A stretch of DNA of 64,000 nucleotides. Origin: Candidatus Omnitrophota bacterium (GTDB lineage: Bacteria > Omnitrophota > Omnitrophia > Omnitrophales > Aquincolibacteriaceae). A program made the position numbers and the translations under genes. Each line of letters opens with the position of its first letter. Position 1 is the first letter of the stretch. The notes beneath the pieces are model-generated. The model did not search any database. It was not told the origin of the DNA and worked only from the letters and a program-made list of their open reading frames with translations. This document shows positions 3,696 through 64,000 of the stretch, one piece after another. The stretch is taken from positions 5,440-69,439 of the forward strand of contig JBDRCT010000003.1 in the NCBI GenBank assembly GCA_043821445.1, given 5' to 3'.

Positions 3696-5121
<1,426 letters not shown>

Positions 5122-42872: not shown

Positions 42873-44114
42873 TTATTTGATCGCCTGAGTAAGCGTAAGG
42901 ATGGGAAGAAAGAGAGCGATCACGATACCGCCGATCACGATACCCAGAAAAGCAATAATGAGCGGTTCGATGAGAGATGTAAGACCGGAAACAGCAGTGT
43001 CCACTTGGGTGTCATAAAAGTCCGCGATCTTTGTAAGCATCTCTTCCAATTCTCCGGTTTCTTCTCCGATCGCGATCATACGAACGACCATGGAGGGAAA
43101 GATATCGCTTTTCTCGAGTGGGCTGGCAATGCTTTCTCCGCGCTTCACGGATCCCATAAGATCCGTAATGACTTTTTCGATCCGGGCATTCCCTGAAGTT
43201 TTAGAAACGATCTCCAGAGCCGCGAGGATCGCCACGCCGCTACGCAATAGCGTGGAAAGTGTGCGCGCAAACTTGCTAACCGCCACTTTTAAAATGATCG
43301 GGCCGAAGATAGGCATGCGAAGTGTGAAGGAGTCCCAAGGCAACCGGCCCATCGGAGAGCGAACGAATTGCCGGAACAGGAAAATACTTCCGCCCAGGAC
43401 GGAGAGGATCCACCACCAATTCGCCGCAAGATAGTTACTGATACTGATCAGGATCTGAGTTGGCGTAGGCAGTTTTGCGTTGAGACCTTCAAAGATCGTT
43501 GCGAACTGCGGGATCACGAAGGCAAGCATGAAGAACGTGATCCCGAAGGCCATGACCGAAACGGCCGTCGGGTACATCACCGCAGCTTTGACCTTTTTTT
43601 GAAGGGCGCTGGACTTTTCGAAATAATGGGCCACGCGGTCCAGGATCTCCTGCAACTTCCCGCTCATCTCACCCGCACGGACCATATGAATGAAAAGCGC
43701 CGAAAAGACTTTTTGGTGCACTTGCATAGCTTCGGAAAGACTTTTACCGGTTTGGAGGTCGCTATGCATCCTCCGAAGAACCAGCCGGAACTTCTCCTTA
43801 TCCATCTGTCCGGCGAGAATGTCCAGAGCCTGGATCAAGGGGATCCCTGCTGCGACGAGCGTGGCCATTTGCCTTGAAAAGATCACAAGGTCGTCCAACT
43901 TGATTTTCCCGGACTTTCCCTGCCGGATCTTGGGAGGGGCCGACCCCTTCTGAATACTCAGGATGGCAGATCCCTTCTTGGCCTGTTCCACACGGACTAC
44001 AAGATAGCCCTGCGTCTTCAGCTGGTGGACGAGCTCTTGCACGTCCTGGGCGTCCTGGAAGCCCTTCAGATCTTTTCCCGTCTTATCCTTGACCCAATAT
44101 TCAAACGATGGCAT
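42873..44114 (-). CDS. pilC: type IV pilus platform protein PilC / GspF family
   Basis: 413 aa. Two T2SSF repeats. Three TM segments. Confidence 0.9.
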   Translation of the reverse strand: MPSFEYWVKDKTGKDLKGFQDAQDVQELVHQLKTQGYLVVRVEQAKKGSAILSIQKGSAPPKIRQGKSGKIKLDDLVIFSRQMATLVAAGIPLIQALDILAGQMDKEKFRLVLRRMHSDLQTGKSLSEAMQVHQKVFSALFIHMVRAGEMSGKLQEILDRVAHYFEKSSALQKKVKAAVMYPTAVSVMAFGITFFMLAFVIPQFATIFEGLNAKLPTPTQILISISNYLAANWWWILSVLGGSIFLFRQFVRSPMGRLPWDSFTLRMPIFGPIILKVAVSKFARTLSTLLRSGVAILAALEIVSKTSGNARIEKVITDLMGSVKRGESIASPLEKSDIFPSMVVRMIAIGEETGELEEMLTKIADFYDTQVDTAVSGLTSLIEPLIIAFLGIVIGGIVIALFLPILTLTQAIK

Positions 44115-44117
44115 AGC

Positions 44118-45812
44118 TCACTCCCGGCTTGCAACGCGAAGCACTTCCTCGAGCGTGGTCACCCCGGATTTAAAGAGTCCCAGTGCGTTCTCGAAGAGTG
44201 TCTCCATTCCCTTTTCAACGGCAAGCTGATGAATAACATTACTCGATTTTTTCCGGATTACAAGCTCCCGGATGTCCGGGTCCACAAGCAGCACTTCACT
44301 TGCGCCGGTCCTGCCAAAATATCCCGTCATGTTGCACTTGATACAACCCTTTCCCGTGAACGGGGCGATCCTGTCCAATTCCGACTTGGAAAATTTACAG
44401 CGAAACAGGACTTCCGCGGGTATGACGGCCGGGGCCCTGCAATTCGGGCAGATCTTCCTGAGTAGACGCTGGGCGCCAACGCATACGACCGACGAGGCGA
44501 TCAAAAAAGGCTCCACTCCCATATCGATAAGACGTGTCATCGCACCGGCCGCGCTATTCGTATGAAGTGTGCTGAACACTAGGTGCCCGGTCAAGGCGGC
44601 TTTTACCGCAATATCGGCAGTCTCCGAATCGCGGATCTCTCCCACCAGTACAATGTCCGGACTTTGGCGCAAGAGAGCGCGTAAACCGTTCGCGAACGTA
44701 AGCCCGATCTCCGGTTGCACCTGCGTCTGCGTGATCCCTTCAACCTGATATTCGACAGGATCCTCTACGGTCATTAAATTCTTTTGCGGCGTGTTCAGAG
44801 AGTTAAGGATCGAATATAGAGTGGTGGATTTCCCACTGCCCGTCGGCCCGGTGATCAGGATCATCCCATAAGGCTTTTTGACCGCCTCAGCAAGAGCACG
44901 CGTCGGTTTTTCCGTAAAACCAAGCTTGTCAAGCCCCGTCCTGATCCCGCTCCGGTCCAGAACGCGCAACACCATTTTCTCGCCGAAATAGGTTGGCAAC
45001 ACGGAAACACGAAAATCGATCTGCCGGTCCTTGAGTAATAACCGGAACCGCCCGTCCTGGGGTAAACGTTTTTCAGTAATATCCAAAAGAGAAATGATCT
45101 TCGCCCGCGCCACGAGAGCGGGATAAAGCTCCAAGGAATGAGAAAACGACTCTTTCAAAACCCCGTCGACACGGTACCGAATACGGAATTCTTTTTCATA
45201 AGGCTCGAAATGGATGTCGGACGCGCGCGATTTGAGGGCTTTTTCGAGAATGAAGTTGACCATCTTGATGACGGGTGCATCATCGACTCCGGCCTGCACG
45301 ACAGACGGCAACTCCGTTTCATTCTCTCTGACAAGCTCCAGGCTGTCTGCGTCTTTTTCGGTAATGAACTCAGAAAAGTTTTTGCTTTCCGCGTAATGGT
45401 CGCTGATGGCAGCGGCGATCCGTGCAGGCGTGACCAATACCGGACTCACATCGCATCCCGTCAGATGCTTGATATCATCGAAAACCCTCAGTTGGAATGG
45501 ATCGCTTGTGGCCACGGTCACAAGTTTCCCGACGCGTCCTACCGGAAAAACATGATGCAGCTCAATGAATTTCCGTGAAAACATCCTCAGGACTTCTAGA
45601 TCGAACTGCATTCCGTGGAGATTCAAGGTGGGGATCTCAAGTTGAGCGCTCAAAAAATCCATGACCTCTTCTTCCAACAGGATCTTTTCTGAGAGGATAA
45701 TTTTCAAAATGCTTTCATTGTGTTTCTGTGCCGTCTGTTCCAAACGGTCACACTCCCCGTCGGAAAGCCCCATTGTTTTCACCCATGCTCGAACGATTTG
45801 CTTGTCGATCAT
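44118..45812 (-). CDS. pilB: type IV pilus assembly ATPase PilB / GspE family
   Basis: 564 aa. N-terminal T2SSE_N domain. Walker A ITGPTGSGKSTT. Tetracysteine CPNC...CIKC. Confidence 0.9.
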   Translation of the reverse strand: MIDKQIVRAWVKTMGLSDGECDRLEQTAQKHNESILKIILSEKILLEEEVMDFLSAQLEIPTLNLHGMQFDLEVLRMFSRKFIELHHVFPVGRVGKLVTVATSDPFQLRVFDDIKHLTGCDVSPVLVTPARIAAAISDHYAESKNFSEFITEKDADSLELVRENETELPSVVQAGVDDAPVIKMVNFILEKALKSRASDIHFEPYEKEFRIRYRVDGVLKESFSHSLELYPALVARAKIISLLDITEKRLPQDGRFRLLLKDRQIDFRVSVLPTYFGEKMVLRVLDRSGIRTGLDKLGFTEKPTRALAEAVKKPYGMILITGPTGSGKSTTLYSILNSLNTPQKNLMTVEDPVEYQVEGITQTQVQPEIGLTFANGLRALLRQSPDIVLVGEIRDSETADIAVKAALTGHLVFSTLHTNSAAGAMTRLIDMGVEPFLIASSVVCVGAQRLLRKICPNCRAPAVIPAEVLFRCKFSKSELDRIAPFTGKGCIKCNMTGYFGRTGASEVLLVDPDIRELVIRKKSSNVIHQLAVEKGMETLFENALGLFKSGVTTLEEVLRVASRE

Positions 45813-47578
45813 GGGCCGCCCCCTCTGGGTGGTAACCCAGCATCCGCTATCGTAACGCGGAAAACCTCATCGAGCGATGTTTCGCCCGTTAGGGCCTTTT
45901 GGACCGCAGATTCGCGCAGCGTGTTCATTCCGTGTTCTCGGGCTCTGGCCTTGATCGCATCCGCGGACGCACCTTGCATGATCAGCTCCAAGATATCCGG
46001 CTTCATTTCCAGGATCTCGGTGATCACGCTCCGGCCCTGATATCCCAGTTGGCGGCACTGCGAACAGCCTTTGGCTTTCCAGAGCTGGACCTTCTTTTTC
46101 GGATCCAGGTTCAGGAACTTATACATATCCGGTTCTAGATCGTATGCGAAGCGGCAACGCGGGCAGAGGCGGCGCACCAAACGCTGGGCCGAGATCATCA
46201 GCACCGTCGACGCAATCAGGAACGGCTCTAGTCCCAAATTCGCCATGCGGGTCACAGAACTCACCGCATCGTTGGTGTGAAGCGTGCTCAAAACGAGATG
46301 ACCCGTAAGCGCGGCCTTGACGGCGATATCGAGCGTTTCCGCATCGCGGATCTCCCCGATCAAGATAATGTCAGGATCTTGACGCAGGATCGAACGGAGA
46401 GCCGCGGGAAACGTCAACCCAATGGATTCGCGAACATTGACCTGATTGATACCGGCTATCTGATATTCCACAGGATCCTCGACGGTCGTGATATTGACCT
46501 GTGGAGAATCCAAATACTTAAGGACCGAATAAAGTGTGGTCGTCTTCCCGCTCCCGGTCGGCCCGGTCACGAGGATCATCCCATGCGGCTTCTTGGCGGA
46601 AGTCCGGATCACCTCCTGCTCTGATGCCGTAAACCCGAGTTTTTGAATGTCATGAGACTGTGCCCCGGTATCCAAAATGCGTAAGCAAACTTTTTCGCCG
46701 AAGCTGGAAGGCAATATGGAAACGCGCATGTCCACTTCCCGGCCCTGAGTTCTCACTTTAAAACGGCCATCCTGAGGCACTCGATGCTCCGCAATATTGA
46801 GCTGACTCATGATCTTGACGCGGGAAACAATGGCATCGCCAAAACTTTTTTGGGGTCTTACGATCTCTTCGAGAATACCGTCAATGCGCATGCGGATCCG
46901 GACAAAACCTTCCCAGGGTTCAATGAAAATATCGCTCGCACGGCGACGCACCCCCTCCACGAGCGCCATGTTGACAAGTTTCACGACTGGGGCCTGGTTC
47001 GCCTGCTCCATGAGGTCCGAGGCCTGCTGCTGCTTATCGAAGATCGCTTCGCTTTCGACCATATGGGCAAGAGAGATGAGGTCTTCGGTGCCTTCATCCG
47101 GAACGGGTTCTTCCAAGACAGCGGTCTCTCCCTGATAGGATTTCTGTATGTATTCCTTGAGCTGGGAATATTCCGCCACCGAGACCCGGATACGCTTTCC
47201 GGTCAAGGAGTGAAGTTCATCCAAAGTCTTTAGATTGGTCGGATTCGCAACCGCGACCGTCAACGTATTTTCATAGAGAACGATCGGGAGACACACATAG
47301 GCCTCCGCGATCTTCCGGGGAATGAGTTCCAGGACTTCTTTGTGAATGATAAGCATTTTGAGACTGACGATACGATAGCCGTACTCTTTACAAAGAATGT
47401 CCACGAGTTTTTTTTCGTCGCATTTTCCTTTCTGAAGAAGAATGTCCAGAAAATGGAGCTTTTTCGAGCTCTTGGCCTGCTCCTGGATCGCCTGCTGAAG
47501 TTCCCCTGAATTGACGACCCCGAACCGAAGAAGGGCTTCTTTCAGGTCCGGCAATGAACTTCGCTTGGGGTCCGTCAT
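45809..47578 (-). CDS. second GspE/PilB-family secretion ATPase (paralogue)
   Basis: 589 aa. N-terminal T2SSE_N-like domain. Walker A VTGPTGSGKTTT. Tetracysteine CPRCR...CSQCR. 4-nt overlap with pilB. Confidence 0.85.
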   Translation of the reverse strand: MTDPKRSSLPDLKEALLRFGVVNSGELQQAIQEQAKSSKKLHFLDILLQKGKCDEKKLVDILCKEYGYRIVSLKMLIIHKEVLELIPRKIAEAYVCLPIVLYENTLTVAVANPTNLKTLDELHSLTGKRIRVSVAEYSQLKEYIQKSYQGETAVLEEPVPDEGTEDLISLAHMVESEAIFDKQQQASDLMEQANQAPVVKLVNMALVEGVRRRASDIFIEPWEGFVRIRMRIDGILEEIVRPQKSFGDAIVSRVKIMSQLNIAEHRVPQDGRFKVRTQGREVDMRVSILPSSFGEKVCLRILDTGAQSHDIQKLGFTASEQEVIRTSAKKPHGMILVTGPTGSGKTTTLYSVLKYLDSPQVNITTVEDPVEYQIAGINQVNVRESIGLTFPAALRSILRQDPDIILIGEIRDAETLDIAVKAALTGHLVLSTLHTNDAVSSVTRMANLGLEPFLIASTVLMISAQRLVRRLCPRCRFAYDLEPDMYKFLNLDPKKKVQLWKAKGCSQCRQLGYQGRSVITEILEMKPDILELIMQGASADAIKARAREHGMNTLRESAVQKALTGETSLDEVFRVTIADAGLPPRGGGP

Positions 47579-51565: not shown

Positions 51566-52874
51566 AGTCTTGTGTATCCGTGATCTTGACGGTGTAAAAT
51601 TTTCCGACTGTTATTTCTTTTGCCGTTCGGATAAGAACACTGCCGTCTACTTCCGGCGCGTCCATGAAGGAACGCCCCGTCCACAAATTTGGATCTTTCT
51701 CATTCTGCGTCTCGACTAGCACCCGGAGCTCTTTGCCGAGATAACGGCGGTTCACTTCCCGCGCGATCTCCTGCTGCAACCGCATGGCCCGGTGATAGCG
51801 CTCTTCTTTGATCTTTTCGGGAACCTGTCCGGAGAATTCCGCGGCTGGGGAACCCTCTTCCTGAGAATACCGGAAAATCCCGAGGCGTTCGAATTTCGTC
51901 TCGCGCATGAAAGTCAGAAGCTCTTCAAAATCTTCTTCCGTCTCGCTCGGGAATCCCACGATAAAACTCGTCCGGATCACCACCCCGGGAATCATGGCCC
52001 GCAACTTCCGTACGAGCTCCGCGGTCTGCTTCTTCGTATTCCCCCGCCGCATAGCTTTGAGTATTTTATCACTAATATGTTGGAGCGGTAAGTCTATGTA
52101 GCGGCAGACCTGTTTTGACTTTGCGACGGCCCGGATGATCTCATCCGTCAGCGTCGAAGGATAAGTGTAAAGAAGACGCACCCACTTGACACCCCGCACC
52201 GTCCCTAAGGCTTCCAAGAGTTGTGGTAAGAGTGACTTGCCGGCATAATCCCATCCGAATCTCGTGATATCCTGACCGATCACGACAAGCTCCTTGGCGC
52301 CTTCGTCTGCCAATTGCTCCGCTTCCCGGACAAGGTCCGCGATGTGACGGGAACGGTAACGTCCGCGTAGCTTGGGGATCACGCAAAAGGAGCACACATG
52401 ATCGCACCCTTCCGAGATCTTAAGATAACGGAAATGAGGAGGCGTCAGAGAGATGCGCGCTTCATCGGCCCCGGCAAGATAACCGGCCTTGTGAACGCTG
52501 ACAAATTTCTTCCCATCCGTGACTTTTTTCAGGACTTCGGCGATTCGCATATAGTCCCCGGAACCGATAAAAGCGTCGACTTCGGGGAATTCTTTCTGGA
52601 GTTCCTCCGCATACCGCTGGACCAGACATCCCACCACGACCACTCCGAGCAGTTTCTTTTTTTTCTTCAGCTCGAGCAGTTTCAGAAGCGCGTCGATCGA
52701 CTCCTGCTTGGCGTCCCGGATGAACCCGCAGGTATTAAGCAGCACCACATCGCTTTTTTTGATATCTTGTGTGATCGAATAATGAGCACCCCGGACCTTC
52801 CCCAGAATGACCTCGCTATCCACGAGCGTCTTGGAACATCCCAAGGACATGATCCCAACTTTGATCTCTTTCAT
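51543..52874 (-). CDS. rimO: ribosomal protein S12 methylthiotransferase RimO (radical SAM MTTase with TRAM domain)
   Basis: 443 aa. N-terminal MTTase domain VGIMSLGCSKTLVDSE. Radical SAM CDHVCSFC. C-terminal TRAM. Confidence 0.75.
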   Translation of the reverse strand: MKEIKVGIMSLGCSKTLVDSEVILGKVRGAHYSITQDIKKSDVVLLNTCGFIRDAKQESIDALLKLLELKKKKKLLGVVVVGCLVQRYAEELQKEFPEVDAFIGSGDYMRIAEVLKKVTDGKKFVSVHKAGYLAGADEARISLTPPHFRYLKISEGCDHVCSFCVIPKLRGRYRSRHIADLVREAEQLADEGAKELVVIGQDITRFGWDYAGKSLLPQLLEALGTVRGVKWVRLLYTYPSTLTDEIIRAVAKSKQVCRYIDLPLQHISDKILKAMRRGNTKKQTAELVRKLRAMIPGVVIRTSFIVGFPSETEEDFEELLTFMRETKFERLGIFRYSQEEGSPAAEFSGQVPEKIKEERYHRAMRLQQEIAREVNRRYLGKELRVLVETQNEKDPNLWTGRSFMDAPEVDGSVLIRTAKEITVGKFYTVKITDTQDYDLVGEI

Positions 52875-52986
52875 TTTAAAAACTCCGTCCGTTTACTGGA
52901 AGACAAAAACAGCGGCATTGTAAGGTTTTTCCGTATGGAATAGGAAGGTTTTTATCAGCTTACGCGCTAGTCTTTTGAGAGATCGT

Positions 52987-55900
52987 TTACGCGGCAGACT
53001 GGATCGCCTGCAACGCCTGCATTGCGATTACCAGCATCTTGCTCAAAGCATCCTGGCTGAACGAACGGAAACCATTTTCATCTTTCTCTCCGTTGAGTAC
53101 TTCCTTGATCGCATCGACCTCGCTCGCGCTCAGGATTCGCTGGGACACGATGGACGCAAGGGTCGAAGTCGCGACCCGGCGGCTCACATCCGTACTATAA
53201 GGCTCCTTGATCATGAGCCCCCTGCCTGTATCCGTCTTGAACACTTTCAAAAATTGATCGGAACCCATAAAGACATAACCCAGTGGCCCTCTGGAAATCG
53301 CCGGCATTGTTTTCATTTTCGAGGTGATAAAATTATTCAGAGCAGTTTCCGGATTATTCTTATCGACCACGATGATATCAAAACGTTTTTCGGCGTTTAA
53401 TTCCTTAAGAGTTTTTGCTAATCGCTGCTCCATTCCCCTCTTTCGTTGCTCTGCTGCCGCAACTTCAGCCGCACCGTCCGCCATCAACACCATAACCTTC
53501 CCTTGCATTTTATTAACCAATGTCCCGAGATCTGCGGGCTCAATGATCGCATCCGCAGGCACGAGCTCAATCTCAAGCCCCTGCTTGTCCATGATTTCAA
53601 TTTGGGTCGTTTTCCCAAATAATGCTCCTGCCAACCCAGTAAAGACATCCCGAATAGCGGTGACCCAACCCGCGGTTTTCGCAGCGCTCGCGTTCGCAAG
53701 TTGCACAATAACATCAGCCATTTGCTCCGCCTTCAACCCGTCATCGAACACCATCCCCGCCACCGCCGCTACAATGACCGGCCCTTTCGCTCCCTGAACC
53801 TCCAGATTATTCACTGCCTCGACATTTGGCCCAATTTTAGCCTGCTCGACAACCAACATATCAGCAGGTGAGATTGCTTCACGAACGACCCTCATCTCGG
53901 AGCGTTGAGTTCCCGGCTCAGCTCCCGGAGATTCGGTTTCAAGGCGCTTTCCAACGGCCTTGAGTTCAGCCGCAACACGAGTTTTTTCGATTTTTGCTGC
54001 TTCAGCTTCGCGCACCTCAGAACGTTTCTCCGTCCCAGGCGCTCCACCCGGCATCTGATCGGTAAATTCCCTTTCAACAAAATCGTTCAACTTATCGATG
54101 CTGACTTCCTCCAGATCCCTGAAGGTCGCGAACATCTTCCTGGCCCCTTCCGCCCAGGATTCCTTTACTTTGGGCGGCTCACTCTCCCAAATAGCCAACA
54201 AGTCACTCACCGTCCTCCAGCGGGCATACTCATTTTCTCCCCTCCCGCCGTTCATCTTGAACCGGTCATAAATGGCGCCGGGATTGGCTTCCAAAACATA
54301 TTTTTGTATCGGGATGTACTTACCCTTAATTCCTGACAAGACCGCGAACCCTTTTTGCTGCGCCAGCCCCAACGCAACACAGAGAAGTGCTAATCCCGGA
54401 TGGAGCCCAATGCGCTGCGGAAAGGTCTCCCGAATCTGTTCCTTTTGATTAAGCCCGCCCGTGATCACAGCCACTCTCAATGCTTCACCGTTCTCTGCCT
54501 GCTGAGTATCAACGCCGATGCGATAGATCCATTGGGTCCTCTCACCTATCGCCTCCCCGATGGCTATGAGAACCCCGGAGGAGCCTTTCCCGAAGCCATA
54601 GCGCATTTCGATCAAGTAGGGTGTGCCACTGATACGCGCGATCTGTACGGATTGACGTCTCCGGAACTCCGGAGCGAACATCTGTTCCATTTTTTTCATA
54701 TTCTGTGTCGCCAAAACTAATTTTGTTTTGCTATCAAGTCCCGGCGGCAGATTGTAAAAAAACCGCCCTTGAGGATTCTGATCGATACGATATTGGCTCA
54801 AATAGGTCCTGAAAAAATCCTCGAAAACTTCGGCGGGAACGTTCCGCGGCACGACCTGGTTCTCCATCATCCACTCGAACAAGCTCCCGGTCTGCTTCTC
54901 TTCGATCTCCATGCTTTCCCGGAGCTTTTGGGACAAAAGCTTTAGCAGCTCATCGCAGGGTTTTTTTGTGAATGCCCGGATCCTGAAAATATAGTCCAGG
55001 GTTTGTTGGACCAGATCGAGCCTAAGCGGCTCACCCGCCGAAGGACTCAAAAGCCATGAAGCAATCTCATTCGCCTTCTCGTTCGAAAGGATCTGCCGTT
55101 TCTTGACGGAAACCGTCAGATACCCCAAAATATCCTCCCGCGTCTCGGAGCGAGCTGAAGGTATGGCCTCTTTAAGATGACCTGCGAGAGACTCCAAATA
55201 GGCTTCATCCACTTGCGGACCGACCCAATCGGGAGACTTTGTGAGATAGACTTTAGGATCGGGCTGGAGACCGTAGCGGTTCAGGAAATCCAAAAGCGGT
55301 GTGCTTTGTTTCCCGAAGTTATTTGGGTCGGTGTGATACCCTGCAGTTCCTAGTTCCTTTCTCATGTTCACCGTAATCCACTCCGGCGGCGACTCTTGGA
55401 GCGAATAAGCGTCAGCACAAACGGTCACGAATGTTTCGGTTCCAAAGATCTTCCCGGCCAGTTGATCCAGCTCCTTACCCTTCAGTTCAACGATCACAGG
55501 CCTGAACCACCATCCTATCTTTTGCATCGTCCAAATACGAATCGCCACAGGGCCCAGGATCTTTTCTGATGGCGGAACATGGACAAAATAAGTGATAAGT
55601 CCTTCGCGTAAAGCACGCGACCCCCAGTTCCCTTCGTTAATGGGTACTAAATATTGCTGCGTCCACGTTCCAACATCCGGATGGGCGTCAAAATTCACCA
55701 GGATCGGCAAAGCGGGGTTGGCCTCCCCCCGTTGTTTTCTCTCGCGGAACCGCTCCCGGAGATAATCTAAGACCCCGTCATGGGTCTCGATCGTGACCAC
55801 TTCTGTCCCAACTTTCGTCAGGACTCCTTTTCGCATTTCGGAGCGGGAAACGGGCTTTTCAGCAATGAGTTCGGAATAAGGCACGCGACGGCCGCCGAGT

Positions 55901-58900
55901 TCGTCTAGGGATTGTCTGGCTTTTTCGCGCTGAGCCTTGTAGAAAAGAAAAAGAAGCGCGGGAGCTTTGGCGGGGTTGAATCTGGCAATCTTACCGTATT
56001 TCCCTTCGTCCACGTCCATGGCCTTTTCGAGATCTTCCGGGGAAACCGCCTTTACCACATCCGAAAGCCACGCCGCCATCTTCATAACATTATCGATCTT
56101 TTGAAGAGGAGTGAGTTGAGAAGCGAGTCCGTTGAGACGCTCCAGGTCTGCTTGCTGGGCAATGATCAACAGAAGTATGGGAGATGTCGTTTCCGGAGTA
56201 CCCGGGATTTTTTTAAGTTCCTCTTCTAACTTCAACCCCGCCTTGTCAAATGTTTCGATGGTGGTGGGCGGACCACGATTCCTTTGGACATCCCCATGAA
56301 AAACTTCCACTATTTCGTCCGGGGCCACCCGGAAGATGATCTCTCCCCTTTCAAGCATCTCTGGGACCGTCTCTTCATCTTTGACCCCAAAAAGTTCGCG
56401 GGCGCTCCCGGAAACGGCTGTAATGGCCTGATCTCCGCCTTTATAGCCAACCCCGTCCATGTTTTGATATTCATGGAAGGCTCTCGGGATCGCCTGTCCC
56501 TTGTAACCCAGAACAATGAGGTGTCTCGTTTCCTTAATATCAACTTTCCGCGCTGCCTCCTGTCCCGCTCCTTCGGTTAAGAGACCTGTAAGGGTGTCGA
56601 TGATCTTCGGGTCCCTTTTTTCAGAGCTCGATGCCCGTTCTGCGAGCTTTTTCGACACCTCTTCGATCTTGTCCCGAGTCACTTCCTTTTTAACAAAAAT
56701 CCCGACTTTCACCTGATTCCTTTTCTTTTTAGCTTCCGAAAGTGCGTCATTGGCCAGCCACATCGCGCACTCATCAAAAAGTTCTATGCGCTCAGGCCTT
56801 AAAGTTTCTACGTCATCCTTTATATAAGTCCAATAATTGCCGCCGTCCTCGTGCTTAACGTCTTTCATCACCTCTTTAAAATAGTCCAGCACCCCGGACT
56901 GTTCCGGGAATTCAGGGTTCCCGGCAGCAGGAGCCGCTCCGATAGAAATAGTGAGAAATCCCCATTTTTGGGGAGTTGCGTTTTCAGATTGGATCTTTTC
57001 AAATCGGATCTCGTGAAGCTGATCGCCTTCCAGATTCAGTTTCGTATGAAGATCTCGCAAAAAGTCCTGCCATTTTCCCTCAGCATCTAACTTCCTCCGA
57101 TCGACACGGATGTATGTGCTCCCCGCATAAAGCACTGCGCTAAGTACGGAAGCATATTCTTTTGATTCGAAAATCTTCGCTTCATTTTCAGTAAGCGTTT
57201 TCTCCACTTCTAAAACCGCATAGCGTCCAAAAAATTCTTCATTGAGGTCTCGCAGGAAATTCTCCAGATCTTCTTGGGTAACTTTCCTTGCGGGAACGAA
57301 TATGATTTCATCGCCTCCAACACCCCGGTAAACTTCTAGGCCATATTTTTTGGCGATCACAAGTATCGTTTTCCGGTAATCGAGAACGGGTGAGTCTTTG
57401 GGCGTGATAAGATGCTCACCCGATCTTTCCAGGCTCATGACCCCCACGATGCCTTTCCCGCCGAGTGCGAGATTCTTGGCGCCGATCTTATCGAAATCCG
57501 ACATATAAAAACGGAAATTTTGAAGATCCGTCACACTTGGGTGTGCCCGCAGATATTTCAAACGTTGTTCCTTTCCGTCGTCCTGTGTTCCCCAGCCGTC
57601 CGATGATTTGAAAGCGTCCGGTTCAACACGAATTCCCAATTTTTCAGCTGTCTCAGGCGTCAATCGCGTGCTTGCGGGAATGGTAACCGTTTCAATTTCT
57701 CCGGTTTCCGAATTCCGGTGCGTGATCTTGAGGCCACCCTCTACTGCTACCTGGAGGTTCAGCAAATCTGCTACTGCCGCTTTGTGACTTGTCGGCGGAC
57801 TCGAATAGACATCGACAGCGCCGCCTTCTCTCATGGCCACTTCCAGCCCCCGAAGCTGCTCATTGATCTCGTCGATCTTCTCCTGTGTTATTTTCTCTGT
57901 CCGCATCTCGGAGCGTGGGAAAGCCATCAAAGCCGTTGCCGGTGTTTGCTGGGTGAACCGGTCCCCGGTATCGCCGCCATCAACAAAAAGAGCCTCCTTG
58001 ATGTCATAGGTGGTGTGCCAGTTTTCTAATGCCTCTATAAGCTTAGCCGTGGTCGGTCCCGTCCAACCAAAAATATCCCAGCCAAAAATATCCAGAGTGT
58101 GGACCCTTCCGCTTGGATCTACCCCCACAACGCTTTTCCGGCCTGAGAAAATACTTTTATGCCAATTCTCAATATTAGGATTCAAATTTCCTTCCGTGAT
58201 AGCCATGGGACCGGCCTGAAAACCTTGCGCCCATTGCTCTTTCGGGTAATTCTCCGGACGAAAGCCTTCTGCTGGCCTGATAAGCACGTCTCCGTTCCTG
58301 TTCAGTAGAAAAATTCCTTTCAACATGGCTGATCCGTTTTCTATGAATGCCCTATCCTGAGCATCCTCGCTCAACCGGAACCACCCTATGGCTCTCCTGC
58401 TTATCTCCCTAAAAGGATTGGCGTTCGAGACGTAGGTCCACCCCTCAGCCAGCAGTTGTTTGATATCCTTCCGTTCCACAATGCGGAACTCATATTTTTT
58501 GGGATCGAATTCGCGGGTCCCTTCGCTACTCCAATGATCGACCGTTGCCTTCTGTGCCACCCCAATCCCAAGAGACAAACCAAGAGCCCCCAGCAACAAG
58601 TTCCGCCTTGAGAAGATTTGAACCTCTTCCTGCCGCATCTCGGAACGCCCCTTGCCTTTGGGCGTGGCAGCTTTTCCGGCTTTTGCTTTTTGTGGACTGG
58701 GTTTCACGGTTTTCGGAGGGGTCTTTAAAATAGGATCCAGTTGTCGCGCGTACTGATTGAGCTCTGGGGTCAACCGTTCTACGGTATCTTTCGCATCGCG
58801 AACGGCCTTTGCCGCCTCGTTTTTGATCATTTCCCATTCGGCCGCCGTGTACCCTTTGTTGGAATAACCTTCCAGTTTTTTAAGCATTCGGCCGGCCTCA

Positions 58901-61900
58901 CCGAGATACCCCGTTTCAAGTTTTGCAAGGTTCCTTAGATTAATAGAAATGCGGTTCCTATATTGTTGAAGCTTCTTAAGATTGCGTTCTTTAGCGGGTT
59001 TATCCATTTCTCCCCGAATTGCTTCCGCAAGCGACTCGGCATCCCGGATCCTGCGAAGCGAGTTGGTAAGGGGCACGTTGACATGTTCGACCTGGTAGAG
59101 ATCCACCGTGAGATTCTTGAAAAGTGCGGCCGTTTGCTTCCGGTAACTGTCGCTTAAGGCTTCGCCCATCGTTCGTTCCACCAACTCTGCCGCAAACGCT
59201 TTAACGGCAACCGCTTTTAGGTAGGTCGCAAGCCCGTAATGAAGGTCGGCTTCCTCCCCCTCGTTCCTGGGCTTTGCGGTATCTCCCAGGTAAGGCGTAT
59301 TGTATTTCCTGTGGAACCGCGGCCACCCATCCTTCTCCCCGGGCCGGCCGGCAACATCCTGGGCTGAGGGTTCCATACGAATGAGGATAAACAGCCGCCA
59401 CAGGAGATGCTGCAACGTCGGGTCCGACGCGATACTTTCACGAACCCTGGCCGTTTCCGGTCTCCCCCTCTTTTTCTTTCTTATATTGTCTAAGTCCAGG
59501 GTGTTATATGTTGGGGACTTAAGCGCCTTATAAAAAGCGTCCACGCCGGGCGTCCAATTCTTTTCGATGAGCTGCCTAACAGGACTGCCTTCAGGAGCCA
59601 TCATTGCTTCGCGAAAAACGTCGACCGCCGATTGGGCTTCGATCTGGAAGGGGCCGGCCGCAGGACCTTTTTTCTTTTGATAGGGTTCGAACGTCGGATT
59701 TTCGAGATAGGTCAGATAGATCGCAGCGAACGCCAGATGCTGGATGCGCTCGGCACGTTCTTTTTCAGAAATGCCGGGATAAAGTGTCCTCTCGGAATCC
59801 CTTAAGAAAACCATGGTGTCCAGGTAGTGACGGACAATACGCTGCATCCGTTCGTCCTGTATATTCTCCGTATCGATCGCCGTCAAATCGCCTTGCAGCG
59901 CTTCAAGATCAAATGGGGTAAGTGCCCTCACCGGCGCGACGAGGGCCGTACTGACCGTCGAAGGTTTGCCTGGCAGCAATGCATTGTGAAACACGTAATA
60001 GACCGCCCCCCCAATCAGCAACACCAATGACAGTGTACCGATCACAAGCGTTCGTTTGATACGGGCAAGTTCGGACTTGGGAATTATGATCCTTAGCCGT
60101 ACTTTATCCTCATCCCGAATTTCGGAGCGGGAATTCTGAACGGCCCAATTGATGACTGCCTGGGACAGTTGACCGGGATAGGCGTTGATCAGGCCGGAGC
60201 TCGATATGCTGAAGACAACAACACTGTCTGGAACGGGCGGCGTTTTGTAACCGTCCGAATTGGGGTCGTATCGTGTTACCGCCAGCGGCACAGAGGCTGC
60301 CTTCGCGGGATCATATTTTGGGGGGTCGAAAACATAATATCGGGTTTTGAAAAATTCGGCGGTTTCAACGCGGGTAACGTTCTCCTCCGCCAAAAAGCTC
60401 CTGCTTCCAGCCAAACCCTGCTGGTAATGCGCCATATGGATCAATTCGTGGAGAAGGGTCCCTGTAAATATCTCCCATGCCGCGTTCCGGTCTTTTAGCA
60501 CCCAATCCAGAGCGCCCTGATCGACCGCGATAAGCTGCGAGTACGCCCGCCCACCTGCCCCACCTCCGGGCCTGTCTGTGCTATTGGGACTGACAAAGAC
60601 ATGATTTTGCCAATTGGGATCTGCCAGCAGGTCCCGGACAACGGGATCTCTGCTATTGGGCGCCATCGCCGCGATCTCTGCCCACGCTTCTTCCAGGACC
60701 TTTTTCGCTTCAGCCGGGAGATCACGGAATGCGGTATATCCAACCGGTATATCGCTCGGTGCAACTACCGAGAGGCCCCGCGCCCCCTGGCTGCAGGCCG
60801 TTCCCGCGGTCATCACAAACGCTGCAACAGGCGCGGTCCTCGCCCAAAACACCGGATTCGAAAAGTTTAGCGATGCCGCGAGAAGTACTAATGAGGCGTT
60901 CCGTTTTAATTTTGCGGAAACTCCCCGCACCCTAGGGGCAGAAGTCTCTACCTTGGCCTGCCGGCCCGCAGCGATCCATGCTTCATCCCAAACCCGGCGA
61001 ATCTCCTCTTCACGTTTTTCCAGGCCTGGAATTACATCATAAATGAACACGGCCTTTTCATCCCGCATCTCGGAGCGGCCACTAAACAACTCCGGATGTT
61101 TTCGGAGTATCCTATCGATCATCGGGCGGGCTGCTTGTTCCGCAAGCAGGGATCTTCTTATCCTTTTGTATCTTTCGATAAGCTTCGCACGAACTTCCAG
61201 TGAAACCCGCTGATCGCCCACTAGTTGGAGAAACTTCATGTTCTCTCTTGAAGCGCTAAAAAGGTCGTCCACGGACCCGTCCTCATTGAACCTGTCCCAA
61301 TGGTCATTCTTTTTGTTTTCTTCGCCGGCCAAACCCGCTAAAACGTTAATCGTTGTTTCTTTCCCGGCAGATCGCAACATCGCGGCTAATGTGGCCTTAA
61401 AATCTTCCTTATGCGCTCCCCGGTCGTCGAGGAGGGCCGCGTCCAACGCACTAAAGGCAGCAATGGGATCAGGGTCTTCCCCAAGCATCCGGATCGCCTG
61501 CCCTAAAGCCTTCCCATAAGTCAATTCCCGACGCTTGACCTTCTCCTCGAGCCAGAAAAAAAAGTCTTTTCGAAATTGTTCCCCACGTCCCGGCTCCCGA
61601 CTTAGTTGATCCATTTCGGTCAAGGCTTGGATATAAACCTCATCCATCGTTTCGGGCGTGGAACCACGGATCAGCTCCTTCCAGTGCGCCTCCATCTCCC
61701 GAAAAGCTTCGGAGTCCAAAGGACTGGCAGGTGACGACCTTGGACCTTCCGTTCGAGGGATCGCTGGGGAGACTTGACCTGCGTCGGGAGCTTTTTCGAG
61801 GAGTTCCTCCAGCCGCGCGATCTCGGCATCCATGCCGGCAAGAACTTCTTCTTTTGTAGCGATCGGGTCGATCCGACCGCTTGCGCCATTGAACTGGATC

Positions 61901-63990
61901 CCGCCCTTGTTAAACGCCAGATGACCGGGATCGCCCTCGTCCACATCAATGATAAAAACCCGGTTGTTTGCGCGAAATAATTTCTTCAAGTGGATATGTG
62001 CACCAACAATTCCGGCACAGCCAAGTCTCGTCAAGTAATTATCAAGAACAGCTTCATTGACCCGGGGCTCGGCACCGTCAACGGAGGAGCCGAAGAATTG
62101 ATCAATCCAGTCTTTTTTCTTGGCCCAAAATATATCTTTTGCGCTCAAAAAATACCCTGTCAGATGATCCTGATTGGCTTTTATTTCCAACCTCGGATCG
62201 TTCTCTAACCCCTTTTGAATGGCCGACCATTCTTCCCCAAGCCTCTCCAATGCTTCCCGGTCGATCGTGGGATTTCCGTCCTTGTTCATGGGAATACCGG
62301 CATGGACATGAAGGAACCCGCGCTCGTCCTCGGCAAAAAGTTTGAAATTCCGAACCATCCAGAGAGCCAGCTCTTGAACAGAGGAAAGATCCCGGACCAG
62401 CCAATCCGCTGCATAACCGCCAACCTTCTGTTCTGCTTCATTCATTTCCTTTAATGACTCTAAGAGCATTCTTTCGTCACCTGTCTTGCGTGCCTGGCTA
62501 TATTTTTGGATTGCCCGTCGATATTTAATTGCTGCTTGATTTGCCGCCTCGACTTCTCCCGGCCGGAATGGAAATCCAAACTCCTTGAGCGTTGCACAGG
62601 CGCCATTGATAATCCAATCCGTAAACGTACTCGGATCCTTTAATAGAACGGATTCGATCATAAAAACATCGTGGTTCCCGAGGAATAGGTCAACCTTGAT
62701 ATTGGGATGATCTTGGGTAAGTTGGACCAGTTCCTGAAAGATCTCCCAGACCCTTTTGTTTTGGCCTCCGCGGTCAAATCCGTCTCCGTGACCCATGATG
62801 TGAAGGGGCTTCCCGGTCCTGGCAGCTTCCTTTGCCTCCGACAGGATCGCTTCCAGATCCCCCACTTTCCCGTGCTTATCCCCGAATGTTAATATCTCGG
62901 GAATTTCACGGCCCTCCGCATCACGACCTGTTGCAATACGCTCCTGGGAACCTTTCAGGTAGTCGATCCTTTTTCTGTAATACTCTTTCGTTCCTGGCAC
63001 CTCCCGCATTTCGGAACGGGTAACGGGAGGCTGTTGTTCTTCGGCTTTTGGCGCCACCGTTGATCCGGCATTTATGTTAAGTTCTGCTAGAGCATTAATT
63101 AATGCATTGATCCGCGCGGATCTTTCCGCGTCTAGGCGATCTACATTTTGTTCTTTGACTACTTTTAAAGCCTGCAGGACCGTCGCTCCTAGAGCCTGTT
63201 GCCGTGTCCGTATCAAGCTCAAAACATCTTCCGGTTTTCCCCCAAGGACGCGCTGAAGATCCTGGGGATCGATCGAAGCCACATCGCGTACGGCTTGAAC
63301 CAGGAACTCAGGACCCGCTTCACTCAACGCTTTCAACACCAAGGGACCATCGAATGAGAACGGCGTACCGATCGGCTGGATTCCGGCAGCATTGGTCAGG
63401 TCATAGAGGACATAGTAGCGGCGTCCGTCGATCGTGGAAATACCGACATTATGGTCCAGTTTAAAATCGGTGGCCCCGGTAAGCGCCAAAAACGCCAGGA
63501 TCTTCTCGATCCCCGAAGTACGCGGGTCAGCCAACTCCGGCAAAGTCAGATCGTTTGCATCACGGGACAAAATGGCGGTCACAGAATTCAGAGAATTGAT
63601 GTCGTAGCGCAAACCCATAATCTGCGCGTTCCAATATCTGGAAAATTTTTCGGGCATTGATAAATCTTCCACAGAGATCTCGGTCCAGCGCGGTATGTTT
63701 ACACCCGCAAGCGCTGCTAACTGATACCCTCTCTTTTCTTTCTGCATTTCTGAAGGTGTGTCCAGTTTTAGGTACCATTTTTCATTCGTGGTCCTGTCGT
63801 TGACGTACCAGGCGTATTCCGGAGCTCTTTTCAAAACCTCTAAATCGACCGCTTTGGGAAACACCGCCGCGGCTCCCCCTTGATCCCGCACTTCGGACCG
63901 GGAAAGAACTTTCTTCAAACCCAAGTTGAGTTTGTGTTTTAACTCCTCCGTGAATTCCTCCGGGATGATCTTTCCCGTAGGCAACTTCAC
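52987..63990 (-). CDS. giant 3,667-aa multi-enzyme polyprotein; modules separated by conserved R-S-E-[MVIT]-R junctions
   Basis: Uninterrupted 11,004-nt ORF. Junction copies at aa 32, 326, 973, 1289, 1783, 2027, 2717, 2948, 3324 and 3364.
Modules:
- aa 36-325: kinase-like (TDFKLDHNVGIS...YVLYDL).
- aa 330-972: PPP metallophosphatase (GDxHG-like HIMGHGDGFDRGG; GNHD; VHAGIP; GAHIH).
- aa 977-1288: HExxH metallopeptidase (TLLHELIHMAHY).
- aa 1293-1782: TM signal-anchor plus possible lysozyme-like region.
- aa 1787-2026: Tat-like signal (SRRNLLLGALGLSLGIGVAQKA) plus phosphodiester-glycosidase-like (ALFVDGGDTG).
- aa 2031-2716: GGDEF-like palm (SDFDKIGAKN...RGVGGDEIIF).
- aa 2721-2947: DAHxD motif (LVNFDAHPDVG).
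- aa 2952-3323 and aa 3368-3667: unknown. Confidence 0.8.
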   Translation of the reverse strand: MKLPTGKIIPEEFTEELKHKLNLGLKKVLSRSEVRDQGGAAAVFPKAVDLEVLKRAPEYAWYVNDRTTNEKWYLKLDTPSEMQKEKRGYQLAALAGVNIPRWTEISVEDLSMPEKFSRYWNAQIMGLRYDINSLNSVTAILSRDANDLTLPELADPRTSGIEKILAFLALTGATDFKLDHNVGISTIDGRRYYVLYDLTNAAGIQPIGTPFSFDGPLVLKALSEAGPEFLVQAVRDVASIDPQDLQRVLGGKPEDVLSLIRTRQQALGATVLQALKVVKEQNVDRLDAERSARINALINALAELNINAGSTVAPKAEEQQPPVTRSEMREVPGTKEYYRKRIDYLKGSQERIATGRDAEGREIPEILTFGDKHGKVGDLEAILSEAKEAARTGKPLHIMGHGDGFDRGGQNKRVWEIFQELVQLTQDHPNIKVDLFLGNHDVFMIESVLLKDPSTFTDWIINGACATLKEFGFPFRPGEVEAANQAAIKYRRAIQKYSQARKTGDERMLLESLKEMNEAEQKVGGYAADWLVRDLSSVQELALWMVRNFKLFAEDERGFLHVHAGIPMNKDGNPTIDREALERLGEEWSAIQKGLENDPRLEIKANQDHLTGYFLSAKDIFWAKKKDWIDQFFGSSVDGAEPRVNEAVLDNYLTRLGCAGIVGAHIHLKKLFRANNRVFIIDVDEGDPGHLAFNKGGIQFNGASGRIDPIATKEEVLAGMDAEIARLEELLEKAPDAGQVSPAIPRTEGPRSSPASPLDSEAFREMEAHWKELIRGSTPETMDEVYIQALTEMDQLSREPGRGEQFRKDFFFWLEEKVKRRELTYGKALGQAIRMLGEDPDPIAAFSALDAALLDDRGAHKEDFKATLAAMLRSAGKETTINVLAGLAGEENKKNDHWDRFNEDGSVDDLFSASRENMKFLQLVGDQRVSLEVRAKLIERYKRIRRSLLAEQAARPMIDRILRKHPELFSGRSEMRDEKAVFIYDVIPGLEKREEEIRRVWDEAWIAAGRQAKVETSAPRVRGVSAKLKRNASLVLLAASLNFSNPVFWARTAPVAAFVMTAGTACSQGARGLSVVAPSDIPVGYTAFRDLPAEAKKVLEEAWAEIAAMAPNSRDPVVRDLLADPNWQNHVFVSPNSTDRPGGGAGGRAYSQLIAVDQGALDWVLKDRNAAWEIFTGTLLHELIHMAHYQQGLAGSRSFLAEENVTRVETAEFFKTRYYVFDPPKYDPAKAASVPLAVTRYDPNSDGYKTPPVPDSVVVFSISSSGLINAYPGQLSQAVINWAVQNSRSEIRDEDKVRLRIIIPKSELARIKRTLVIGTLSLVLLIGGAVYYVFHNALLPGKPSTVSTALVAPVRALTPFDLEALQGDLTAIDTENIQDERMQRIVRHYLDTMVFLRDSERTLYPGISEKERAERIQHLAFAAIYLTYLENPTFEPYQKKKGPAAGPFQIEAQSAVDVFREAMMAPEGSPVRQLIEKNWTPGVDAFYKALKSPTYNTLDLDNIRKKKRGRPETARVRESIASDPTLQHLLWRLFILIRMEPSAQDVAGRPGEKDGWPRFHRKYNTPYLGDTAKPRNEGEEADLHYGLATYLKAVAVKAFAAELVERTMGEALSDSYRKQTAALFKNLTVDLYQVEHVNVPLTNSLRRIRDAESLAEAIRGEMDKPAKERNLKKLQQYRNRISINLRNLAKLETGYLGEAGRMLKKLEGYSNKGYTAAEWEMIKNEAAKAVRDAKDTVERLTPELNQYARQLDPILKTPPKTVKPSPQKAKAGKAATPKGKGRSEMRQEEVQIFSRRNLLLGALGLSLGIGVAQKATVDHWSSEGTREFDPKKYEFRIVERKDIKQLLAEGWTYVSNANPFREISRRAIGWFRLSEDAQDRAFIENGSAMLKGIFLLNRNGDVLIRPAEGFRPENYPKEQWAQGFQAGPMAITEGNLNPNIENWHKSIFSGRKSVVGVDPSGRVHTLDIFGWDIFGWTGPTTAKLIEALENWHTTYDIKEALFVDGGDTGDRFTQQTPATALMAFPRSEMRTEKITQEKIDEINEQLRGLEVAMREGGAVDVYSSPPTSHKAAVADLLNLQVAVEGGLKITHRNSETGEIETVTIPASTRLTPETAEKLGIRVEPDAFKSSDGWGTQDDGKEQRLKYLRAHPSVTDLQNFRFYMSDFDKIGAKNLALGGKGIVGVMSLERSGEHLITPKDSPVLDYRKTILVIAKKYGLEVYRGVGGDEIIFVPARKVTQEDLENFLRDLNEEFFGRYAVLEVEKTLTENEAKIFESKEYASVLSAVLYAGSTYIRVDRRKLDAEGKWQDFLRDLHTKLNLEGDQLHEIRFEKIQSENATPQKWGFLTISIGAAPAAGNPEFPEQSGVLDYFKEVMKDVKHEDGGNYWTYIKDDVETLRPERIELFDECAMWLANDALSEAKKKRNQVKVGIFVKKEVTRDKIEEVSKKLAERASSSEKRDPKIIDTLTGLLTEGAGQEAARKVDIKETRHLIVLGYKGQAIPRAFHEYQNMDGVGYKGGDQAITAVSGSARELFGVKDEETVPEMLERGEIIFRVAPDEIVEVFHGDVQRNRGPPTTIETFDKAGLKLEEELKKIPGTPETTSPILLLIIAQQADLERLNGLASQLTPLQKIDNVMKMAAWLSDVVKAVSPEDLEKAMDVDEGKYGKIARFNPAKAPALLFLFYKAQREKARQSLDELGGRRVPYSELIAEKPVSRSEMRKGVLTKVGTEVVTIETHDGVLDYLRERFRERKQRGEANPALPILVNFDAHPDVGTWTQQYLVPINEGNWGSRALREGLITYFVHVPPSEKILGPVAIRIWTMQKIGWWFRPVIVELKGKELDQLAGKIFGTETFVTVCADAYSLQESPPEWITVNMRKELGTAGYHTDPNNFGKQSTPLLDFLNRYGLQPDPKVYLTKSPDWVGPQVDEAYLESLAGHLKEAIPSARSETREDILGYLTVSVKKRQILSNEKANEIASWLLSPSAGEPLRLDLVQQTLDYIFRIRAFTKKPCDELLKLLSQKLRESMEIEEKQTGSLFEWMMENQVVPRNVPAEVFEDFFRTYLSQYRIDQNPQGRFFYNLPPGLDSKTKLVLATQNMKKMEQMFAPEFRRRQSVQIARISGTPYLIEMRYGFGKGSSGVLIAIGEAIGERTQWIYRIGVDTQQAENGEALRVAVITGGLNQKEQIRETFPQRIGLHPGLALLCVALGLAQQKGFAVLSGIKGKYIPIQKYVLEANPGAIYDRFKMNGGRGENEYARWRTVSDLLAIWESEPPKVKESWAEGARKMFATFRDLEEVSIDKLNDFVEREFTDQMPGGAPGTEKRSEVREAEAAKIEKTRVAAELKAVGKRLETESPGAEPGTQRSEMRVVREAISPADMLVVEQAKIGPNVEAVNNLEVQGAKGPVIVAAVAGMVFDDGLKAEQMADVIVQLANASAAKTAGWVTAIRDVFTGLAGALFGKTTQIEIMDKQGLEIELVPADAIIEPADLGTLVNKMQGKVMVLMADGAAEVAAAEQRKRGMEQRLAKTLKELNAEKRFDIIVVDKNNPETALNNFITSKMKTMPAISRGPLGYVFMGSDQFLKVFKTDTGRGLMIKEPYSTDVSRRVATSTLASIVSQRILSASEVDAIKEVLNGEKDENGFRSFSQDALSKMLVIAMQALQAIQSAA

Positions 63991-64000
63991 GGCACTATTC

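Follow-up and report, generated by a model that had tools for sequence, protein, structure and literature searches.

A predicted signal anchor behind an internal junction of a giant Omnitrophota protein, compared with known polyproteins and modular toxins

The stretch of DNA analysed here (hereafter the window: 64,000 nt of contig JBDRCT010000003.1, assembly GCA_043821445.1, Candidatus Omnitrophota bacterium) carries on its minus strand the 3' part of a giant gene, whose product contains repeated RSE.R pentapeptides that we call junctions; behind one of them, RSEIR, lies a hydrophobic helix which is the subject of this work. Giant proteins are known from the same phylum ("Archaeovorin" and dockerin types), where very long open reading frames (ORFs) are accompanied by signal peptides or transmembrane helices, suspected cleavage and proposed cell-wall-degrading domains. 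The signal peptides and transmembrane helices are reported in two preprints (bioRxiv 10.1101/2023.11.21.568195; 2026 bioRxiv 10.64898/2026.06.07.730766). In the former (West-Roberts et al. 2023), the choice between one chain and many products is left open and missing cleavage points block analysis, and text searches of both preprints revealed no junction motif. The protein described here differs from the Archaeovorin type in its length (6.3 thousand amino acids (kaa) against 30-147 kaa), in the SecA_DEAD/SecA preprotein-binding, C39 and S8 domains, none of which Pfam found in its window part, and in lacking many transmembrane helices.

MARTX toxins of Vibrio are likewise bacterial giant precursors, with effector cassettes that are shuffled between strains and released at short inter-domain sites, and shuffling is also seen here. 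They differ in their repeats-in-toxin (RTX) repeats and Peptidase_C80 domain, which Pfam did not find in the nine window cassettes, and in their purely C-terminal type I secretion route, whereas the present protein has an N-terminal Sec-type signal; cassette signals of the Sec, twin-arginine translocation (Tat) and lipoprotein types are not MARTX features either. Flavivirus and pestivirus polyproteins (for example at the capsid-prM junction) share with our gene a long ORF and, given the proposed cleavage, a cytosolic protease site placed just before an internal signal, and products on both membrane sides. Those polyproteins are eukaryotic viral ones, handled at the endoplasmic reticulum membrane by a known viral protease and the host signal peptidase, whereas the gene studied here is bacterial and chromosomal with housekeeping neighbours, its junction is RSE.R or GARLA, and its cleavage is presumed. 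In function these polyproteins and MARTX toxins come nearest, and the Pfam scan of the window part showed the defining features of neither. Finally, membrane-anchored murein hydrolases (MltG/YceG of E. coli; signal-arrest-release (SAR) endolysins such as P1 Lyz) use a single N-terminal transmembrane helix to tether a periplasmic lysozyme-fold enzyme, and a freed cassette of the giant protein would act alike; there is no sequence-family match to them, the helix is less SAR-like (7 of its 21 residues are Gly, Ala, Ser or Thr by our own count), and it is encoded 3,900 residues inside an ORF.

We propose with moderate confidence that the helix serves as type-II signal anchor to M10, a self-contained cassette of about 494 residues that is exported and belongs to a probable polyprotein cut at its junctions.

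The helix behind RSEIR and the cassette that follows it

The minus strand reads ...NS-RSEIR-DEDKVRLRIIIPKSELARIKR-TLVIGTLSLVLLIGGAVYYVF-HNALLPG..., which agrees with the first-pass annotation of this DNA in having RSEIR, then a basic stretch, then a 21-residue hydrophobic helix. The range given there, nt 60040-60127, covers the junction and the basic stretch but breaks off after 4 residues of the helix, of which a further 51 nt lie outside it. The three elements lie as follows.

nt 60115-60129, minus strand (window-ORF aa 1288-1292): junction pentapeptide RSEIR, start of cassette M10 ("module 4" of the first-pass annotation)
nt 60052-60114, minus strand (aa 1293-1313): charged n-region or basic stretch DEDKVRLRIIIPKSELARIKR, 21 residues, predicted cytoplasmic side
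nt 59989-60051, minus strand (aa 1314-1334): hydrophobic helix TLVIGTLSLVLLIGGAVYYVF, 21 residues, predicted type-II signal anchor (N-in/C-out)

The 19-residue Kyte-Doolittle (KD) mean of the helix is 2.17, the top value of the whole 3,667-aa ORF. None of its 21 residues has a charged or strongly polar side chain, and the run free of D, E, K and R extends over 28 residues. With an Eisenberg mean hydrophobicity <H> of 0.76 and a moment <muH> of 0.16 the segment is not amphipathic, so that hydropathy analysis, which had been named as the way to disprove a membrane span, found it neither too short nor amphipathic; rough, simple addition of Hessa-scale values gives about -0.1 kcal/mol. Counted over 15 residues on each flank, K+R amount to 5 before the helix and to 1 after it, and an N-in/C-out orientation is therefore expected. 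All the sequence properties of a type-II signal anchor of this orientation are present and the assignment appears well supported; the likeness to an N-terminal signal anchor noticed at first reading is borne out by hydrophobicity, charge bias and a conserved segment in homologues. As encoded, the helix lies at aa 3917 of 6,270, and only a cut at RSEIR would bring it to 26 residues from a new N-terminus. The earlier suggestion that it splits the polyprotein topologically is plausible. We also considered the junction and helix as a C-terminal sorting signal of the sortase/exosortase type belonging to the preceding cassette, and rejected it on the order of the elements (motif, charged stretch, transmembrane segment), the absence of a basic tail after the transmembrane segment, and the fact that most junctions have no such segment behind them.

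An exhaustive search of 1.8 billion representative proteins with M10 gave ten homologues (P0001-P0010, P0001 being the full product of the window gene). A word-indexed protein search gave no match with M10 and 2 matches with the C-terminal cassette, and two metagenome scans found no relatives. In all ten homologous cassettes a hydrophobic 17-mer (KD 1.5-2.8) stands in the 48-99 residues ahead of the conserved core, and pairwise identity falls from 35% in the core to 19% in this pre-core hydrophobic region and 12% in the linker. By inspection, the segment is a single transmembrane anchor in P0001-P0006 and P0009, whereas P0008 has a lipobox-like FTGC after the h-region, P0007 a Tat-like twin-arginine motif (MSRRRFLR), and P0010 an N-terminal segment resembling a signal peptide (...VNVSYA-ATV). 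P0010 is a genuine stand-alone gene of 443 aa, preceded by a 215-nt spacer. Signal type, as read from these sequences, varies by lineage and its position is kept, which indicates that function is conserved and sequence less so. Since the signal-like segments of P0010, P0008 and P0007 occupy the same place, we take the core to work outside the cytoplasm, delivered there by the hydrophobic segment.

The homologous block also keeps register with the junctions: it opens at a junction motif in all 8 giant relatives with visible upstream sequence and closes at the next one, 434-494 residues on (494 aa from RSEIR to the next junction in the window). The cassette upstream of it varies, being an HExxH cassette here, a kinase-like one in the related locus L001 and an NAGPA cassette in P0004. 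The remaining parts of M10 and its borders in the window are these.

nt 61063-61077, minus strand: previous junction RSEMR, opening the HExxH cassette that ends at RSEIR
nt 59923-59988, minus strand: linker from anchor to core, HNALLPGKPSTVSTALVAPVRA, poorly conserved and of low confidence in the model
nt 59122-59922, minus strand: conserved globular core with invariant E..P, ENP, GPAxGxxQxE and YNT
nt 59695-59709, minus strand: core motif YLENP, which contains ENP
nt 59626-59667, minus strand: core motif GPAxGxxQxE
nt 59290-59307, minus strand: core motif YNT
nt 58717-59121, minus strand: long-helix (coiled-coil-like) C-terminal half of M10 in the AlphaFold2 (AF2) model
nt 58648-58716, minus strand: Pro/Lys/Ala-rich linker closing M10
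nt 58633-58647, minus strand: next junction RSEMR, opening the NAGPA-like cassette
nt 58546-58614, minus strand: signal-peptide-like segment FSRRNLLLGALGLSLGIGVAQKA of that next cassette, with a Tat-like RR motif

The AF2 model of the whole cassette (predicted local distance difference test, pLDDT, 78) has a helix of moderate confidence at residues 19-48, a low-confidence linker at 47-65 and then a confident globular part. The core modelled alone, without the helix, is at least as good (pLDDT 80, predicted template-modelling score, pTM, 0.82), and the models agree with an independent anchor.

What the core may be is suggested by its motifs. The alignment of the ten homologues has an invariant E-N-P, then G-P-A-x-G-x-x-Q-x-E 12 residues later and Y-N-T further on, which resembles the E-S...G-L-M-Q-I...Y-N of family-1 lytic transglycosylases, where the catalytic Glu precedes a G-x-x-Q-I motif by about 15-20 residues. 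No member matched SLT (PF01464), even at E <= 10, and M10 found no significant family among PDB sequences, Pfam and NCBIfam. Alignment by hhalign with the catalytic domain of E. coli Slt70 was weak (E = 0.08) and paired PAAGPFQIEAQSA with GASGLMQIMPGTA. Foldseek matches to the whole-cassette model were no more than helical-bundle noise, produced by its long C-terminal helices, hence the separate model of the core; with the latter nothing fell below E = 0.2, and many of the top-50 PDB matches and most of the named BFVD matches, all weak, were lytic transglycosylases or g-type/goose-type or phage tail lysozymes. Two unnamed BFVD matches to the core reached a probability of 0.93-0.97 and a target-normalised template-modelling score of about 0.6. 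Weak but in agreement with one another, these results hint at a lysozyme or lytic-transglycosylase-like fold, and a murein-acting enzyme, should M10 be one, would need just the periplasmic placement that the anchor gives.

Junctions, export-type segments and chain topology

RSE.R occurs in 10 copies in the window part of the protein and in 16 in the full P0001, and six-frame translation of the window shows it in no long ORF besides the giant one. A de novo count over 10 related sequences ranked it first among gapped 5-mers in 7 of them; in P0005 and P0006 its place is taken by GAR.A (GARLA), of which each has 13 copies (14 and 16, respectively, for the wider pattern GAR[LM][ASV]), and the junction of P0009 is [RK]SE[LF]R. 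The amino acids of the junction are kept through synonymous codon changes (CGT/CGC/CGG, GAA/GAG, CGG/CGA/AGG). The 12 residues upstream are enriched in P, G, A and S and depleted in aromatic residues, I, L and D, those downstream are enriched in E, Q and D, and the junction-proximal ends of the AF2 model have pLDDT < 50. There is, in short, a recurrent site at the borders of independently folding units, and homology blocks begin and end at the motifs. Cassettes change places across them: NAGPA stands before M10 in P0004 and after it in the window protein, the order in P0003 is M14-M06-M07-M08...M10...M12, and in L001 the kinase-like M07 is joined straight to M10, with the DNA switching over at the 15-nt junction. 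Literature searches gave nothing relevant for the junction motif strings and nothing pertinent for bacterial polyprotein precedents.

Around the L001 joint (JAZDFE010000028.1, 9900-10100) the phosphatase and HExxH cassettes are absent between M07 and M10, and a frameshift about 60 nt upstream of it splits the gene into ORFs of 1,816 and 2,203 aa; the split may be genuine or stem from an assembly error. P0002 (L001 ORF 10004-16615) has at aa 474-505 an NAGPA cassette shrunk to a 21-residue remnant, RSEMR-NFLLGNPGLSLGDVAVHMALP-RSEVR, which retains traces of the signal-like segment and the last residues of the cassette.

Export-type segments follow junctions more often than expected. In a set of eight giant proteins, 13 of the 29 hydrophobic segments that lie internally begin 0-45 aa past a junction, against 3.0 by random junction placement (p <= 2e-4), and the enrichment persists with all M10 copies removed (7 of 19 against 1.95, p = 0.002). 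The first post-junction hydrophobic segments have positive N-flanks; Tat-like motifs with an h-region all lie 2-7 aa past a junction or near the start of P0007 (aa 60); and in P0008 the sequence RSEMRS-SGLLATLLLAGSMLWAVDA-NG has the look of a textbook signal peptide.

The first-pass annotation had credited at least two internal modules with targeting information of their own, one of them Tat-like. The cassette after M10 does open in a signal-like way, with SRRNLLL and 17 uncharged residues 7-10 aa past RSEMR, and the term Tat applies to it only by resemblance to the twin-arginine motif S/T-R-R-x-F-L-K: the segment gave no match to TIGR01409 at E <= 1, and the Pfam scan no Tat-signal family (such as PF10518) at E <= 0.1. 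The post-junction TRRAFLGK of a relative scored 12.8 bits against TIGR01409, whose cutoff is 16.7. Two GARLA junctions of P0006 are followed 2-7 aa on by Tat-like motifs (SRRLFI, TRRAFLGK).

The same annotation had described the N-terminal modules as devoid of targeting, which holds only for the three cassettes that it named (kinase-like, phosphatase, HExxH), the full P0001 having its own Sec-type N-terminal signal peptide (MKTAWMGKRTKKTVSLLTMGFFLVSQFAFA followed by NP; aa 13-31, signal-peptidase site read by eye between AFA and N) ahead of the conserved first cassette. Even the HExxH cassette carries a 20-residue uncharged run, NASLVLLAASLNFSNPVFWA (window 60841-60900, minus strand, ORF aa 1031-1050), 55 aa past its junction and flanked by 5 K+R before it and 1 after it, which may be a weak export signal.

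Export-type segments with basic N-flanks are thus found in P0001 at aa 13-31, 3917-3937 and 4400-4416. No convincing helix of opposite sense lies between the three, and the whole of P0001 has one strongly transmembrane-competent segment only. In an unbroken chain each helix must run opposite to the one before it; therefore either two of the three segments are unused or the chain is broken between them. Judged from the sequence, an unbroken chain would be unable to satisfy all three N-in-type signals, and if led by the N-terminal signal it would also export some 3,900 residues of kinase-like and metallophosphatase cassettes. That different modules would end up in different compartments, as had been suggested, requires a chain broken at its junctions, a break that we infer from anatomy and comparison.

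The giant gene, its other cassettes and its surroundings

nt 52987-64000, minus strand: giant ORF, 3' 3,667 codons, 5' end beyond the window

The apparent GTG start of the ORF at 63990 is an artefact, as the preceding codons stay in frame (...NSAVKLPTGK). In the exhaustive search, a 100% identical match gave the full product, MFH1799306.1, of 6,270 aa (P0001), annotated as "hypothetical protein" and originating from a Candidatus Omnitrophota metagenome-assembled genome (MAG); two related loci are likewise from Omnitrophota MAGs. P0001 extends the window part by 2,603 N-terminal residues, and the helix occupies its aa 3917-3937.

Downstream of the giant gene lie genes for a MiaB/RimO-like radical-SAM enzyme, PgsA/PgpA, CinA, LigT, an endonuclease III-like protein, two PilB-like ATPases and PilC, and these neighbours are ordinary chromosomal and housekeeping genes. 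The two tandem ATPase genes (PilB/type II secretion system (T2SS)-E type) and the PilC/T2SS-F gene occupy window 42873-47578 (minus strand), about 5-10 kb downstream of the giant gene, and inspection of the neighbourhood found no linked secretion-system gene apart from these distant pilus genes. An RNA element or a foreign insert was rejected: Rfam gave no match in nt 52000-64000, across which the GC content is even (0.49-0.56).

The Pfam scan covered the nine window cassettes, which include kinase-like, metallophosphatase, HExxH and NAGPA-like ones, and the first 701 of the 2,603 residues outside the window. It found no peptidase family in the window cassettes except for a weak Tox-MPTase3 match (E = 0.043) in the HExxH cassette (LLHELIHMAH; window 60127-61074, minus strand). 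Nor was a linked protease found among the downstream genes of the window, which are housekeeping ones, or among the upstream genes in L001 (a GH94 enzyme and a protein of no assigned function). In P0003 (aa 2319-2540) and the giant ORF of locus L002 (aa 3777-4000), the cassette after the transmembrane cassette is a membrane module of 4-5 helices with HELGH in a hydrophobic helix; a weak match to Peptidase_M50 (site-2 protease) occurs only in P0003 (E = 1.9e-4, below the Pfam cutoff). The protein of the window lacks this possible intramembrane protease cassette.

The last cassette (304 aa, window 52990-53901, minus strand) has a C-terminal counterpart in all giant relatives whose sequence runs to the end, with mostly similar tails (...QAIQSAA, ...QAIGSAA, ...QAIAQAA, ...SIRASA), and gave no family against Pfam and PDB; it may be a secretion signal, a degron or an enzyme. 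Two resemblances were not used as evidence. The 690-aa cassette after the NAGPA cassette (M12; window 55843-57912, minus strand) contains VYRGVGGDEIIFVP, which resembles a GGDEF-type nucleotide cyclase motif, with no Pfam family at E <= 0.1; a likeness of the first cassette to TraB/Tiki-type proteases found no support in Pfam.

Proposed processing, competing explanations and meaning

In the explanation that we favour, M10 consists of a junction, a charged n-region, the 21-residue helix, a flexible linker, a globular core, a long-helix tail and a Pro/Lys-rich linker, up to the next junction. The giant precursor would be cut at or beside the RSE.R junctions by an endopeptidase, this being a step that we infer, and the cut would free an N-terminus with a basic tail about 20 residues ahead of the helix. 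The helix would then engage the signal recognition particle (SRP)/Sec-YidC pathway as a type-II signal anchor, so that the basic n-region would stay cytoplasmic and the core, with any enzymatic activity that it may have, would lie in the periplasm, tethered to the inner membrane; this orientation is predicted from the sequence and from the homologues. Cassettes without an export segment would remain in the cytoplasm, the first would use its cleavable Sec-type signal and the one after M10 its own signal peptide, and one gene would in this manner yield products for several compartments.

Several points weigh against this explanation. Signal anchors within a chain can enter the membrane during translation, with no need for a free N-terminus. 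No protease common to all relatives was found, the HExxH cassette has no homologue in the other giant relatives (BLAST, E <= 1e-5), the conserved first and last cassettes matched no known family, and the lysozyme-like assignment lies under every significance threshold. There are only 10 homologues, several of them mutually related, and the counts are hence not independent. Finally, when the 3,667-aa ORF is shuffled with its composition kept, 179 of 1000 trials reach a 19-residue KD mean of 2.17 or more: the hydrophobicity of the helix by itself is not beyond chance for an ORF this long, and what does go beyond chance, on comparative evidence, is its conservation together with its position. It is on this evidence that an accidental hydrophobic stretch, or a helix buried inside a soluble domain, without any membrane role, seems to us extremely improbable despite the equally hydrophobic 19-mers of the shuffles. 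Hydrophobicity is kept at the same position in 10 of 10 homologues in spite of the 19% identity, and lipobox-like, Tat-like and signal-peptide-like segments, as judged by inspection, replace the anchor in other lineages; a buried helix would also have to be reconciled with a core model that is confident without it and with the low-confidence linker that follows it in the longer model.

An uncleaved multi-pass chain of 6,270 residues, in which the helix would be an internal start- or stop-transfer segment and RSE.R a linker or a recombination scar between shuffled cassettes, is in our opinion unlikely, and it keeps an appreciable share of the probability. Bitopic bacterial proteins often have internal signal anchors, junctions double as recombination points, as seen at the L001 joint, no protease was identified in the cassettes scanned, and the published surveys of Omnitrophota giant proteins treat these as single chains (class "SP+TM", signal peptide plus transmembrane helix). 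Such a chain must nevertheless break the positive-inside rule at least once, given the segments at aa 13-31, 3917 and 4400, and it leaves either the kinase-like and phosphatase cassettes, about 3,900 residues long, or the core on a side unlike that of the stand-alone and lipobox homologues; a pure scar, moreover, would not stay conserved as amino acids through synonymous changes, nor be swapped wholesale for GARLA. The same conservation bears on internal translation initiation at the fourth junction codon, by which the cassettes would be separate proteins from one messenger RNA and the helix a true N-terminal anchor without proteolysis. That codon is ATG, GTG or ATT in 9 of the 10 window junctions, and the L001 frameshift leaves a GTG-started ORF beginning at a junction; the flanking R, S, E and R are kept as amino acids, which a start site does not need, one window junction has ACG, and other junctions of P0001 have Q, A or S at this place (RSEQR, RSEAR, RSESR). 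As a Shine-Dalgarno (SD)-like sequence stands before 18 of 33 real starts and before no more than 2 of the 10 junction codons, we rejected the junction as an SD-plus-start site and hold internal initiation to be very improbable. We give rather little credence to a further explanation, that of an effector polyprotein exported whole into a prey or host and processed there, with internal signals that would use the Sec and Tat systems of the prey to reach its envelope; it would be MARTX-like, with the difference of bacterial targeting signals. A predatory or host-dependent life has been proposed for Omnitrophota and a link to cell-wall attack for their giant proteins, relatives differ by shuffled cassettes in the manner of MARTX effector domains, and the terminal cassettes are conserved. 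Against it stand the lack of a linked secretion-system gene save the distant pilus genes, the lack of an RTX, CPD or other delivery domain in the window part (Pfam) and the ordinary Sec-type signal at the start of the protein; it is entirely speculative and nothing specific supports it. Its fuller form, to which we would give slightly less credence again, has the precursor cut in the prey at lineage-specific junctions, the cassettes using the SRP/Sec, Tat and lipoprotein pathways of the prey and dismantling its envelope from inside, and the kinase-like and phosphatase cassettes acting in its cytoplasm.

Giant ORFs of Omnitrophota are a recognised puzzle, for which the junction motif and the anchor give concrete predictions. 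Candidate cut sites are supplied (RSE.R, or GARLA in other lineages), the cassette borders can be used to split giant proteins for structure prediction, and the presence of several same-sense export signals in one ORF provides a topology argument that is hard to meet without a break of the chain. If the chain is uncut, the helix would still be a conserved membrane anchor fixing the topology of a 690-kDa protein. If the signal-anchor and cleavage explanation is true, the gene would encode, on the chromosome, a polyprotein of viral style, the pieces of which bring Sec-, Tat- or lipoprotein-type signals of their own, an arrangement that to our knowledge is undescribed in bacteria, and one gene could supply cytoplasm, membrane and periplasm in fixed proportions.

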